Positions 6,001 through 12,000 of a DNA stretch of 43,461 nt are shown piece after piece. The position numbers were made by a program. The number at the start of each line of letters is the position of its first letter. The stretch's first letter is position 1. Origin of the DNA: a virus (taxonomy: Duplodnaviria > Heunggongvirae > Uroviricota > Caudoviricetes); IMG/VR virus record IMGVR_UViG_648276647_000004, positions 1 through 43,461 of that record; one strand, given 5' to 3'.

Positions 6001-9000
6001 TGTTCCTGATGGTGAGTATCGAACTTCCGGGTCTTGTCCTACCCGACCAAGGATAATCACCTTATTTACGCCTCTGCTTGCCATTTATGCCGCCTGTTTT
6101 AGTTCGTTAACTCTGATGTTCATTACCTGAACGCATTTAGCCTGCGCCTCCTCGTTGCCAGCCATTAATTGCCAGTCACGCTGATAACGCTCGATGAGTT
6201 TTTTCTTGTCAGTTTCTGTTGACGCATAATCGCTGAAGTCTTTCAGGATTTGTTCGCAGTCAACCGATGGAGATTTCTGGTTGGTATTTTCTGGTGATGG
6301 TTTGTTATCTGATGCTGGGATTGCCCATCCCGGCAGCGATGGAGGGAGCCAGTAAAATCCTGTTCCATCCTTGAGTTTTGCCCTGTGCCATCCCTGCTTT
6401 TTATCGAGAGATGTTTGTGCAAAACCTTCCTCAAGGTTATACAGATACCGACCGATTCCCCACTGAACGGCAGCGCGCTTCATTGCACCGGAACGACCGC
6501 CTTTGACGGCTTCTACCTGCGTGTTTTCAGCAGCATCCCATTTGGTTACCCATTCGGAATCAATCTTGATTGATATGCCGCATTCAACTCCGCCGTTGTT
6601 GGGAATATCGCGGTATTCATTGCGCCATCCTGCTTTGCCGCAAACATCGTCCAGGCGCTTCATGATTGCCCGGTTCGTGACATAAGCCAGCACCATAGCC
6701 CACACCTTGCCATCGCGTGTTTTACCGCTTTGCTGTATTCGCCATTCGATATCTTCAGGGCTGAATGGCTCATCGAATTTGTTCAAATCCATAATTCACC
6801 TCAGAATGGACACGGCCCAAGGAAATAACGCTGATTTAATACTTCGACTCGGGACAAATTAAGGCATACCCGCATTCCTTCGCGGTCGCCATTATGGCGA
6901 TACCAGAGAGCTTTCTGCGTGTACATGCGTCTCTGTAACTTGCTCTCCTTCACTGTGGTTGCAAGTGACATGAATATCTCCTTCGTTACCGATTAATTCT
7001 TTCATCTGACGAATGAATTCTTCGTCTGACCAGTTATCCGTAAAACTCATGGACGGCCTTGTTGTTTCAAAATATCCCAAAGCTTTTCGAGCAAACTTTT
7101 CATTCTTGGTTGTTTAAAGTCTGCTCCGGTTAAAATATTTTTTCGTGAATGCTGTACCGATAAAATCGGGTTGAAAGGGCGAACCGATGCCGCCCCTGCA
7201 ATAGCGAACTGTTGCATAGGATGCTCCTTCTGTTTGATTGCATAACGAAAACGCCTCGAGTGAAGCGTTATTGGTATGCATATAAAAAAGCCCCCACACT
7301 GGAGGGCAAAGAAGATTTCCAATAATCAGAACAAGTCGGCTCCTGTTTAGTTACGAGCGACATTGCTCCGTGTATTCACTCGTTGGAATGAATACACAGT
7401 GCAGTGTTTATTCTGTTGTTAGTGCCAAAAATAAAGGCCGACTATGCGGCCTGAAATTACTTAACCAATGATGCTGCATATTCGATAAGGTAAAGCTTTG
7501 GAGCCAGCCAAATTTTTAACCAAGTCATATTGGTTACTGCACCAATAATAAAAATCCCCCACAGAGCCAAAACTCCAACCAATGGCATGATAAGAAGATT
7601 AATATCACCTTTGCTATCCCAAACCATTGTCGGCCTGTATTTGGGATTTCCCCTCTCCCATGAGTATCCTTCATCACCGATTTTACCTGTCTCAACTCTT
7701 TGGCACTGCTTCTTCATAAACCAGAAAACCAGTGGGATTGTTAGAATGGCTATTAATGTTTTAATCAGACTGTCAACCATATTCCATAGCAGCAACTGAT
7801 GAACAACATCAGGAATCTGTGCCTGGCTAAATGAAACAGCCGCGTCTATTCCATTACTGGCTTTTTGCAGTAGTTCTACGAGAATCTTGTTTGCTTGTTC
7901 TTCCATATATCACCTTGATTGTAATAAGCATGAAATTATTTACGGCTAAAAAATAAAGGCCACCATCAGGCAGCCTTGTTGTAAATGTTGCAGGTATCAA
8001 GTAAGTAATTAGATGGAGCGCCATAAATTATGAATTCATCGTTTGTCGGGTCCATCTCCATCTCTTGGCCTATTGCCATTCTTGCGTCAGTGTCATCAGC
8101 GGCGAAGCATAAAACAGCCCACGCACCCATTGTTTTAAAAAGAACTGCAATTGGCTGTGGTTTTACTGAATTTGCGTTAGCGCGAAAATCACAAATCGCA
8201 CTTTCATGAAACTCCATATCTCACCTCAAATAAGTGGTTTGCTGCGAAAGTAAATGCGCTTAAGTTACCTGTTATTTATCCCACCAAGTTCCGTATCTAT
8301 CTATCCAGTTACACCAATCATCGACACTCCATTTTGTTGTGTCGCATTTTGGCAACTGGCATGAATATCTACCTTCTTTGTAAAGTCGGCGTTTGACTTT
8401 CTTGAGCATGGCTCACCTCAATCGTAATAAGCTGGAATTGATTTTCCGCGTTGCTTCTGGCGACCAACACAAGTCACGCCCATTTCACTGCGTGGCTTGC
8501 GGTAGTAAATACGGCTCTGTTTACGCTCGACTTCTTCTGCCTTCCTGCAGCGAAGGCTTCCTAGTGATATTGCTTTTTCAGAAAGGCTTAAACGCTTTCT
8601 TGGGGCTTCCTGAACAGGCTCCTCACTGTCTGTGCCGAAGATAGAATCAATGATGTTACAGATAGCATCACGCTCAATAGCCAGCTTTCTGCGCCGCTCA
8701 TGACGGCGAGTTTTGGCATTTCCTGCGAATGTTGATTTCCCGTACACGATTACCGTCATGATATTTTCCTCATGTGAAATGGCTTTGGTGGTGATGCGCC
8801 AGATGCTGATCTTCTGGTTGCTGTCGTTGCAGCTGCAATTCACATCACCGCCAAACCCATCTCGTTTGGTATCTGTTTGCGCTTTGTCAGCGCCCCATTG
8901 AAGTTAAAGAGCCTGCCAATCTGTTCCGTTTGGCTACCAGCGTCCTGCTGATGTGACAATAATGAACCAATAGTTCGACATTATCAAGAACTATTGGTAC

Positions 9001-12000
9001 GAAAATTTTGTGATTTATTAATGCTTCGAGATATGATTTTGATATATAAGGAAATTTATTTTTGTAAATGCTGCAGATTGGTCTGTAGTTGGAGGGGGGT
9101 ATTGCTGGTGAGTTGGTTCGCGGTTTACCACATTTGCGGCTATTAAATATGGGGGCGATCGTGAGGCAAAGAAAACCCGGCGCTGAGGCCGGGTTGTCTC
9201 ATTTTTTAGTTTGCTTTGGATTCGGTTTGTCTCTTCTTCCAATTATAAACACGCTAGTTAAAGCAACTAACTCAGCACCAAGAAGCCCGGTAGCCCAGCC
9301 ATAAGCCTCGTGCTGAATCATCTTGTAAGCAATTCCTGCGAAAACAAAGACAGAAGTCATCGCAAAGATCTGTCCGAGTCGATCTCGCCAAATTGCTCCC
9401 CTCTGTCCTGCTTTGTAATACTCGTGTCTGTGTTTTTGCTCAGCCTTAGCCATGTCCATTATTTCGCGAGCGAATCCTGGAGATATTCTTTCGTACTTAG
9501 CTAATTCGTCAGCGTCTGGGAGTGGCCCTGATCTAGTGTGAGTCACCTGCATCATGATGCCAGCTAGATCTGGCCTGTCCATGAGGCGCTCAAGAACTTG
9601 AGGGTTCTTTGCGACCTCATTTATAAGCAGTTCGGTTTTACCGTCTTGAACTCGCCCTAACGGAGTTGGTTGGTTAACAAGATTTCTCGGGGCGGCGGTT
9701 TGAAGCTTTCTTTGGGATTTTTTTCTGCTCATTATCAGTTACAGCGTCTCTAACGTAACTACCTACCTTAACCCAATCTGAGTTGATAAGGTCGATGTCT
9801 GTAGCATTTGAATGATACTCGCTGTAGCTACCTGCTGGGCAAAGGTCAAGGATAGAGCCCATAGCGCTGAAAAAGTGCTTTGCAGATTTTTTCATGTGGG
9901 GTGTCCTATATGTTGTTTACTCTAATTTGAGTAATTGAAGTTTACGCAAAACCTAGCTTTCAGCAAGCAATACAGCACAAAAAATCATGTAAATTTGCGT
10001 CTATTTTTATCTACCGGAAAAATGCTCAACAACTTTAGAGAAAAAATAGCAATACCAAATCAAACCAATTGCTGCTTCGCCTCTACCCAAACGTCTCTTC
10101 AGGCCACTGGCTATCAGCTATGTGACGATGAAGTCACGAACTTTTCAGCCACTCCCTTGCCTCGATGTCATCCAGATGGCGAGATTGCTTCAGAATACCA
10201 GCCACATACTCCACCTTTGCTACTTGATGATAAGGCAACGTTATTGGCCTATGGTCCTGGTTGATGCTTGTAAACTGGTATTCTCCGTCTCTGTCATAGC
10301 CAAGAACTTTGATCATGTTGTGTCCTTCAACGGTTCTGACAAACACCTCATCACCCGGGAAGACTTTGGTGTTAGGCTCAATGAGTACATATTCTCCTGA
10401 TTTTATTCTGGGCCACATGCTGTCTCCTTTCACACGAAGACCAAAGGCATCTGGATCATCGCTATAAATTTTGAGCCACCCATCGCGCTCTTCGGTCATC
10501 TCGATGGCACCATCAACACCAAGAATTGCCTCACCAACCACGCGCACTAACCCTTTTTTTAATTTGCCAACAAATGAAAGAGTATCTTCATCATTCGCTC
10601 CATTTAACGAAGTGCCGTGCTGAAGCCAAACAACATCAACGTTTAGAAATTTCGCAAGCGCATTCATTTTTTCCTGACGCGGTAAAGACTCAGCATTAAA
10701 CCATTTGCTAACGCCTTTGGACGAAAGAGAAAGGGCACGGGCTATGGCCATCCCCCTACCATGTTCATCAAGACCAGCTTCTTTACAGGCTTGCGCTAGC
10801 CGCTGGGCGAATTCTTTGCGCACTTTTTCATTCTGAACCATGAGTACGATACTAAAGCACTTGCAAAAACTTTCAGTTCAACCATAATACGTACTGAAAG
10901 TACGAAAAAGGATATTCCTATGCAAAATCTTGATGAGCCGATTAAAGGTGTCGGCATCCCTGAAGTTGCGAAGGCTTGTGGAGTTAGCGAAAGGGCTGTC
11001 TATAAGTGGCTCAAAAACGGCTTCCTCCCTAAGACTGAGTTTTTTGGGAAAACTAAATACGCATCAAAAATCGAAGAGATTTCTGGTGGCAAATATCAAG
11101 CAAGCGAAATGCTTGAAATAAGCAAAAAGAACCTTCTGGCTGCATAAGTAACACCGCTCTTTATCAATCTGCACCGCCGACAACGCGGTAACTAATTAAG
11201 CACTCATCGAAAGATGAGTATTAGTGATTATTTACCTATGGAAATAGTAAGAAATGGAACAAACAAGTTACAGCAAACTATCACAGCGCGACGTTGATCG
11301 CGCAGAAACAGATTTACTCATCAACCTGTCAACGCTTACACAGCGCGGTCTGGCAAAGATGATTGGCTGTCATGAATCGAAGATAAGCAGAACGGACTGG
11401 AGATTTATTGCTTCGGTCTTGTGTGCTTTCGGAATGGCATCAGACATCAGTCCGATTAGCAGGGCTTTTAAGTATGCGCTTGATGGACTCACCAATAAAA
11501 AACGCCCGGTGTGCAAGACCGAGCGTTCTGAACAAATACAAATGGAATTTTAACAACATCCAACGAGGTAATTATATGCGAAACAAAGGCTTTAATCCAC
11601 CTGATACACACAAAGAAGCTAAGCGTTTGCGCTTCCTTCGTTCCATTGATGAAAGAACTCAAATCTCTTTTGTGAAAGTTGCCAGAACTGAGCTTCTGAA
11701 GGCTGAAGCGAGGGCGTTGCTCCCGTCTCTACCAAAAGAGGAGGGATATACGTTCATTCCAAACGCATTTCTGGAAAAGCTGCTCAAAGAAGACATATCC
11801 GTAAGTCAGTTTAACGATGTTCTTAAGGTCTTTCGTCAAGGCAGGTAGTTATGAGCAATACAGCAAAAATCTACGATTTCAGCGCCGCACACGAGCGCAG
11901 GAGCAACAGGATGGAGAACCAGAAAACTGGTTACATTCCGTTGTACCGGAGCATTCTGAAACAGTCATGGGCGAAAGATGTTTATCTTCGCACCCTGTGG

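Follow-up and report, generated by a model that had tools for sequence, protein, structure and literature searches.

Is the early region of a prophage that pairs a lambda-type integrase with a P22-type N protein a P22 antitermination module acquired as a whole, or has P22 recognition specificity been fitted into an early region of another kind? We addressed this question for the N gene and the nutL and nutR sites of IMG/VR record IMGVR_UViG_648276647_000004, referred to here as the window (the whole stretch of 43,461 nucleotides that was analyzed). The comparisons described below indicate, with high probability, a standard lambdoid early antitermination system that has P22 RNA-recognition specificity and in which N is chimeric. 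A preliminary description of this DNA had read the same locus as a regulatory module that was exchanged as a unit. The coordinates of all features are collected in Table 1.

N protein and its arginine-rich motif

The open reading frame (ORF) found mechanically at the N locus is longer than the gene that we assign, spanning 8418..8843 on the minus strand with a GTG start. The true start of N is the downstream ATG, which is preceded by a GAGG Shine-Dalgarno sequence within CAUGAGGAAAAUAUC. RefSeq calls the same 113-residue gene in a prophage of Escherichia coli SC407, which matches the window with 100% identity over the N-nutL segment, and labels it "hypothetical protein." By its matches to Pfam N_peptide PF25694 (E = 4e-26; 91.8 bits against a curated threshold of 27.9) and to PHROG 271, "anti-termination protein N-like" (8e-45), the protein is a member of the lambdoid N family.

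As the P22 reference, we used the annotated record BK000583, in which gene 24, nutL, and nutR are marked. The earlier statement that N carries the P22 arginine-rich motif (ARM) was confirmed: the motif GNAKTRRHERRRKLAIER is unchanged from that of P22 gp24, and residues 1 to 42 of N are identical to gp24 at 40 of 42 positions, with similarity extending to about residue 75. Besides, the ARM matches 18 of the 19 residues of the P22 N peptide NAKTRRHERRRKLAIERDT in the nuclear magnetic resonance complex PDB 1A4T, in which this peptide is bound to the boxB RNA GCGCUGACAAAGCGC (both sequences taken from PMC11480772). The proposed alignment of N to gp24 therefore held for the N-terminal part and failed for the C-terminal part. 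BLASTP aligned the two proteins over residues 1 to 75 only, with 69% identity, and the C-terminal 40 or so residues are of the type found in phage 21 (phi21) and lambda. The limited match means that the protein has P22 recognition specificity without being a whole-length orthologue of gp24.

nutL and nutR sites

Both boxB elements are base-for-base those of P22, as an alignment of the nut regions to P22 nutL and nutR revealed. The nutL boxB is identical at 15 of 15 positions to the P22 nutL boxB and to the 1A4T RNA (nutL of P22, CGCTCTTTAACTTCGATGATGCGCTGACAAAGCGC; nutL of the window, GGCTCTTTAACTTCAATGGGGCGCTGACAAAGCGC, minus strand). It is separated from boxA by a spacer of 9 nucleotides, and its minimum-energy fold (-7.1 kcal/mol) consists of 5 bp and a GACAA loop, in agreement with the boxA, 5-bp stem, and GACAA pentaloop described previously for 8879-8893. 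The boxA context at nutL is the same as in phage 21, and the P22 boxA is CGCTCTTTAAC.

At nutR, the boxB is identical to that of P22 at 17 of 17 positions (P22, CGCTCTTTACCAATCTGAACCGCCGACAACGCGGT; window, CGCTCTTTATCAATCTGCACCGCCGACAACGCGGT). The boxA, the GACAA hairpin, and the P22 type reported for this site stood up to analysis, whereas the 5-bp stem written as CCGCC-GACAA-CGCGG did not. The bases flanking the loop form a C·C mismatch (C11178/C11184), and the five Watson-Crick pairs run from A11173-U11189 through C11177-G11185; the minimum-energy fold accordingly has a 7-nucleotide loop, CGACAAC (-6.7 kcal/mol). Since the authentic P22 nutR has the same C·C mismatch, it is a feature of the family and not a sequence error in the window.

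Placed between pL and N (nutL) and between cro and cII (nutR), in the gene order of annotated P22 (pL-nutL-N and cro-nutR-cII/c1), the two hairpins and the ARM make up a matched set of the P22 specificity type. The ARM and its boxB correspond to the 1A4T complex, and the cognate pairing of ARM and boxB that had been proposed is borne out. The GACAA pentamer occurs 80 times on the two strands of the window, and only 4 of these occurrences are enclosed by a stem of at least 4 bp. Two of the four have the boxA core GCTCTTTA no more than 45 nucleotides upstream; these are nutL and nutR, each on the expected transcribed strand. At gathering thresholds, Rfam matched no family to either nut site and recognized only two tRNAs in the window.

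A possible third nut site, of another specificity, was also considered. The plus-strand sequence GCGCUGAAAAAGUGC at 9864-9878 forms a lambda-like boxB hairpin with a GAAAA loop, and we rejected it: no boxA accompanies it, it is antisense within an ORF of the cI operon, and 16 of 100 shuffles give a match as good. It is the single GAAAA hairpin in the window, and no lambda-type nut site was found there.

Leader of the N transcript

The leader between nutL and N is predicted to be strongly structured. Its fold has a z score of -4.9, and none of 200 shuffles folds as well; the P22 leader gives a z score of -4.2. The window leader is 37 nucleotides shorter than that of P22 and has a different inner hairpin. 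The base helix of the long leader hairpin (GAGAUGGGUUUGG/CCAAAGCCAUUUC) is conserved, and the inner part is swapped for unrelated, self-complementary sequence, giving three leader classes (137, 174, and 197 nucleotides). The RNAalifold consensus of the N leader carried no net covariation bonus (+0.5 kcal/mol). Because the inner segments of the three classes cannot be aligned, support for the structure comes from the independent folds rather than from column covariation. By analogy, the element may be a counterpart of the lambda N-leader hairpin that is processed by RNase III.

Mosaic structure of the early region

We compared the window with phage 21 and P22 in a three-way DNA alignment from the +1 position of pL to the N stop codon. 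Between pL +1 and boxA (8953-8914), the window is 97% identical to phage 21 and 80% identical to P22, and from boxA to boxB (8913-8874) the values are reversed, at 55% and 88%. The part comprising the Shine-Dalgarno sequence and N codons 1 to 42 (8793-8634) is again closer to P22 (75 to 93%) than to phage 21 (17 to 65%), whereas the core of the phi21-like part in the 3' half of N (8553-8474) is 95% identical to phage 21 and only 42 to 47% identical to P22. Likewise, over 8455-8593 the identity of the N DNA is about 95% with phage 21 N, compared with about 45% with P22. At the protein level, residues 56 to 101 or so are of the phi21/lambda type, the part beyond residue 75, SLGSLRCRKAEEVERKQSRIYYRKPRSEMGVTCVGRQK, is nearly identical to phage 21 N, and the last 11 codons, encoding QRGKSIPAYYD, match the type of phage ST64T. 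The C-terminal half of N also aligns to lambda N in the cryo-electron microscopy structure of an antitermination complex, 6GOV (E = 4e-8).

DNA similarity to P22 is confined to two separate patches, one at 8634-8953 (73% identity, with insertions and deletions) and one at 11139-11191 (87% over 53 bp), and a blastn comparison with P22 found nothing P22-like in the stretch between them. Beyond nutR, cII is 94% identical in DNA sequence to cII of phage 21. Given this patchwork and the overall identity of only 73% in the N-nutL patch, with its insertions and deletions, the early region holds no P22 block in one piece, and nothing points to a recent transfer from P22 itself. Judging from these alignments, the scaffold of the early regulatory region is largely phi21-like (pL +1 to boxA, the inner leader, the 3' half of N, and cII), and only the boxB of nutL, the 5' part of N with the ARM codons, and nutR in its entirety are of the P22 type within it. 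On the same grounds, N is a natural chimera, with an RNA-binding module of the P22 type and a polymerase-engaging C-terminal module of the phi21/lambda type.

Distribution and variation among relatives

An N terminus bearing this ARM was found in 131 of 50,697 phage records, mainly those of Salmonella P22-like phages and of about 50 Stx-converting phages. A minority came from other Escherichia and enterobacterial phages, and Cronobacter and Klebsiella contributed one or two records each. IMG/VR contains 503 confirmed relatives of the N terminus, and among 5426 complete E. coli genomes, 1049 have a match to part of the N-nutL segment.

For locus analysis, we used 79 IMG/VR loci encoding N with the P22-type ARM. 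The nutL boxB, GCGCTGACAAAG(C/T)GC, lies upstream of N in 77 of them, with one variant in which a G-C pair has become G·U, and the nutR boxB, ACCGCCGACAACGCGGT, is present in 73, on the opposite strand and at a distance of 1.3 to 3.6 kb from the start of N. For the other six loci, the nutR side is missing because the contig ends, falls outside the 4-kb stretch examined, or has been rearranged away; the contigs of L011, L023, and L043 are without the upstream sequence. We therefore do not regard the apparent exceptions to the co-occurrence of ARM and boxB as true ones, the contigs concerned being truncated or rearranged.

In contrast to this constancy, the DNA between the nut sites of the 79 loci falls into at least 24 unrelated clusters, i.e., immunity cassettes, and the C terminus of N is of three types (41 loci with a P22-like, 30 with a phi21/lambda-like, and 8 with an ST64T-like C terminus). 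Where a locus carries another immunity cassette, homology to the window ends at 8953 (pL +1) and resumes at 11135-11154 (cro stop codon/boxA).

Several loci have a special structure. Two of them (L047 and L054, at 3700-4000) combine the oL/pL operators of lambda itself and a lambda-like cI (92%) with P22-type nutL and N, and their pR side is replaced by unrelated genes; another (L085) has an insertion of about 2.7 kb inside the N leader. All three look like defective prophages. Within the ST64T-like group, L063, L073 to L077, and L079 (and probably L080) have an extra insert of about 200 nucleotides between the leader hairpin and N. The insert, located about 200 to 375 nucleotides upstream of N, contains a small ORF beginning ATGCGTAAGCCAAAAACC, so that N is the second cistron after nutL in those loci.

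Proposed mechanism and unit of exchange

The matched P22-type recognition set is almost certainly functional. We infer antitermination activity, Nus dependence, and the choice of overridden terminators as follows. The leftward transcript from pL and the rightward transcript from pR would carry nutL and nutR, respectively, each with boxA ahead of the boxB hairpin. With its arginine-rich N-terminal region folded into a bent helix, N would sit on the GACAA loop of boxB, boxA would recruit NusB/NusE, and the middle and C-terminal parts of N would engage NusA and RNA polymerase. The polymerase modified by N with NusA/G would then read through the terminators that lie beyond N and those that separate cro/cII from the replication and nin genes. 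Candidate targets of this readthrough are the terminator-like hairpins at 7956..7977 and 14197..14221.

What, then, has been exchanged? The two P22-like patches, the chimeric N, the switched leader, and the at least 24 cassettes together identify the exchanged unit as the immunity cassette that the nut sites enclose, from pL/oL via cI to cro, with junctions that the sequence comparisons place at pL +1 and the cro stop codon. The ARM and the boxBs of nutL and nutR flank this cassette and are not contiguous; they are presumably kept matched by selection. The end of N that binds polymerase forms yet another module, which is shuffled independently.

Alternative explanations

The hairpins might be thought to be chance inverted repeats beside a boxA-like word, and short GACAA hairpins of 4 to 5 bp do arise at random: composition-matched first-order Markov randomizations contained a mean of 0.76 such hairpins per sequence without regard to boxA, and the window itself has two in addition to the nut sites. 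None of 300 randomized sequences, however, had a hairpin with GCTCTTTA upstream, and both sites reproduce the P22 boxBs exactly in canonical positions, which refutes this explanation and leaves it a negligible probability. It is also conceivable, though highly improbable, that N and its nut sites are an inactive relic in a decaying prophage, their motifs being no longer used. The RefSeq label of the identical gene and the clear rearrangements in some relatives (the leader insertion of L085 and the loss of the pR side in L047 and L054) would fit such decay. What speaks against it is that the N ORF is intact and has a ribosome-binding site, that dozens of loci keep the ARM and boxB unchanged despite their divergence elsewhere, and that Int, cI, cro, cII, replication genes, Q, lysis genes, and a full virion gene set are all present as ORFs, in a window that retains one copy of the att core and a far end matching the sib/att region.

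The transfer of a complete P22 module (N and both nut sites) into a lambda-int phage in one step, which is how the preliminary description understood the locus, would explain why all three specificity determinants are of the P22 type and always co-occur. We consider it very unlikely, because the mosaic map contradicts it: P22 identity is split between the moderately similar N-nutL patch and the 53 bp at nutR with none between, the 5' leader/boxA context, the 3' half of N, and cII are phi21-like at 94 to 97%, and homology breaks off on the inner side of each nut site. Besides, relatives differ freely in the immunity region between these sites, and in them the same ARM and boxBs accompany the different cassettes and all three C-terminal types of N. 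The reading of P22 recognition specificity in a lambdoid system with a chimeric N is itself not free of difficulties, and several points count against it. The nutL boxA GGCTCTTTAAC starts with G, whereas those of lambda and P22 start with C (the phi21 sequence is the same as that of the window). The C·C mismatch closes the nutR loop and weakens the predicted fold, although P22 shares it. That a P22-type ARM can work together with a C terminus of the phi21/lambda type is deduced from the frequency of the combination, which occurs in 30 of 79 loci. Finally, the terminators named as putative N targets are consensus matches only.

How the mosaic came about is a separate matter. It seems to us unlikely that short patches were replaced in a coordinated way, the alternative being descent from a common ancestor that has not been sampled. 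If such replacement were the true origin, the locus would be a natural record of an RNA-protein recognition code switched at three sites in one phage lineage, and the conserved nut sites and pL +1 would be recombination linkers for the exchange of immunity cassettes.

Comparison with known systems

The type of system found here is already known, both from the P22 N-boxB structure 1A4T and from phage L, whose gp24 is the same kind of chimera. It has been reported that phage L gp24 consists of the N-terminal 75 residues of P22 gp24 and an unrelated C terminus, that it is functionally interchangeable with P22 gp24, and that the phage has the same boxBs (PMC8022706). Phages L and ST64T follow the same principle as the window: their boxBs are identical and about 75 N-terminal residues are of the P22 type, but the C terminus is not. 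ST64T also shares the tail QRGKSIPAYYD with the window and differs in the central C-terminal segment (RIYYRDVNPLGNKIHAVQK in ST64T versus RIYYRKPRSEMGVTCVGRQK in the window).

In addition to the shared ARM, boxBs, and gene order, there are clear differences from P22. P22 N ends with LLPGVALYAAGHRKSKQITAR and the window N with RIYYRKPRSEMGVTCVGRQKQRGKSIPAYYD, the last 40 or so residues being unrelated. The repressor, cro, and operators of the window are unrelated to those of P22 as well, and the window has morons and the terminator t_imm between cI and pL and E. coli as its host. Phage 21 has a counterpart of the other half of N (C-terminal segment SLGSLRC.KAEEVERKQ.RIYY.KPRSEMGVTCVGRQK), and its ARM GTAKSRYKARRAELIAERR and boxB hairpins, such as CUCUCAACCUAACCGUUGAGA, belong to a different specificity class. 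The lambda N-nut system (6GOV) has in common with that of the window its mechanism, gene order, Pfam N_peptide family, and C-terminal motif ERK..R.(W/Y)Y.KP...G(I/V)TC.GRQK..GKSIP, and the Int proteins are 99% identical, whereas the lambda ARM (MDAQTRRRERRAEKQAQW) and boxB loops (GAAGA/GAAAA) are different.

Relatives are also found among Stx-converting and other E. coli lambdoid phages, such as SH2026Stx1, the Stx2a phages LC6160xx, and Lambda_2G7a. The annotated N of Escherichia phage SH2026Stx1 is 89% identical to the window N and has the same chimeric layout, and N-nutL DNA is 94 to 95% identical in about 50 Stx phage records. Lambda_2G7a has the same cI and cro as the window, and its N keeps a P22-type C terminus. 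Stx and other lambdoid relatives differ from the window in the genes between cI and pL and in the late genes.

The immediate gain from this analysis is in annotation: the "hypothetical protein" at 8418..8759 can be named N, nutL and nutR can be annotated, and the prophage can be placed in the P22 N-specificity group, which is useful for predicting cross-activation of early operons among prophages in one cell. The survey of relatives illustrates lambdoid modularity, in which the recognition code stays matched while the immunity cassette and the polymerase end of N are reshuffled. These results confirm textbook ideas without extending them and have little importance beyond annotation.

Other features of the prophage

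Table 1. Positions of the antitermination elements and associated features in the window
Feature	Position	Strand	Basis or remark
Int	516..1586	minus	353/356 identical to lambda Int
Intrinsic-terminator-like hairpin	7956..7977	minus	First in the pL operon downstream of N; consensus scan
N gene	8418..8759	minus	113 residues; ATG at 8759; chimeric
ARM GNAKTRRHERRRKLAIER	8670..8723	minus	N residues 13-30; translation
Small hairpin	8775..8758	minus	Encloses the Shine-Dalgarno sequence and ATG of N
Long N-leader hairpin	8777..8863	minus	Between nutL and the N ribosome-binding site
nutL boxB GCGCUGACAAAGCGC	8893..8879	minus	5-bp stem, GACAA pentaloop
nutL boxA GGCTCTTTAAC	8913..8903	minus	Core GCTCTTTA at 8912..8905; read from sequence
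pL promoter candidate TTGATA-17-CATTAT	8959..8987	minus	Consensus scan
t_imm, terminator of the cI-moron operon	9174..9195	minus	Terminator scan; separates the cI-moron operon from pL
cI-type repressor, helix-turn-helix (HTH) and S24 peptidase (LexA type)	10134..10841	minus	Pfam
pR promoter candidate TTGCAA-16-CATAAT	10861..10888	plus	Consensus scan
cro-like HTH gene	10920..11147	plus	Pfam HTH; stop codon is the right edge of the immunity cassette
nutR boxA CGCTCTTTATC	11155..11165	plus	Core at 11156..11163
nutR boxB ACCGCCGACAACGCGGU (ACCGC-C-GACAA-C-GCGGU)	11173..11189	plus	17/17 identical to P22 nutR boxB
cII	11254..11553	plus	Pfam Phage_CII, 6e-35; first gene downstream of nutR
Terminator-like hairpin, tR2-like position	14197..14221	plus	Between the DnaB-like helicase gene and the nin region; consensus scan

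By analogy with the lambda pL start context, the pL transcript probably starts at about 8952, inside CACATCAGCAGG. On the same kind of analogy, the interval between nutR and cII would be the expected place of a tR1-type terminator. Further terminator-like candidates were detected leftward in the pL operon at 7435-7452 and 7290-7307 by the consensus scan. A strong terminator-like hairpin with 12 pairs and a T run (11499-11529, minus strand) is antisense in the 3' end of cII and occupies the position of the oop RNA terminator of lambda and P22.

The cI-type repressor is part of the swappable immunity cassette and showed no similarity to P22 c2 in the P22 comparison. A 46-bp stretch at 9150-9195, which includes t_imm, is 100% identical to lambda DNA just downstream of rexB. 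The rexAB position itself, between cI and t_imm (9199-9895, minus strand), is occupied by a 73-residue ORF (PHROG 26284, unknown function) and a DUF2335 membrane protein that matches PHROG 3996, "moron"; relatives carry different genes there. The two genes are probably accessory or exclusion genes expressed in the lysogen.

Regarding integration, the description of the window as a lambda-int phage is well founded, and the window is, from its sequence features, an E. coli prophage integrated at att-lambda with a lambda-type integration module. In addition to the near identity of Int to that of lambda, the lambda att core GCTTTTTTATACTAA is present in a single copy at 428-442, and in the SC407 prophage, which is nearly identical, int has ybhC as its direct neighbor. 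The first 400 or so positions of the window seem to be host DNA next to the prophage, and at the opposite end (43265-43461) the sequence matches the sib/att region of HK97/lambda. Near this end, a 129-residue ORF (42858-43247, plus strand) has a DNA match of 72% to an Enterobacter phage "error-prone repair protein UmuD" and is possibly a cargo gene beside the attachment site.

Downstream of the early region, two tRNA genes, tRNA-Asn(GTT) and tRNA-Thr(TGT), lie at 17523-17678 on the plus strand, directly after the gene for a Q-like antiterminator (16886..17431); in Stx phages, tRNAs occupy this position upstream of the toxin or lysis genes. The late genes are not lambda-like, as is evident from a tail sheath gene at 29447..30937; the late region as a whole (19500-42700) is myovirus-like, with tail sheath, head maturation protease, and baseplate genes. 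Close matches to it are almost absent from the 50,697 phage records, the best being to a Vibrio phage (12% coverage, 70% identity), and at least 80% of it is carried by only 5 of the 5426 complete E. coli genomes. Thus, in this prophage a lambda-type early region is joined to a poorly sampled contractile-tail module.

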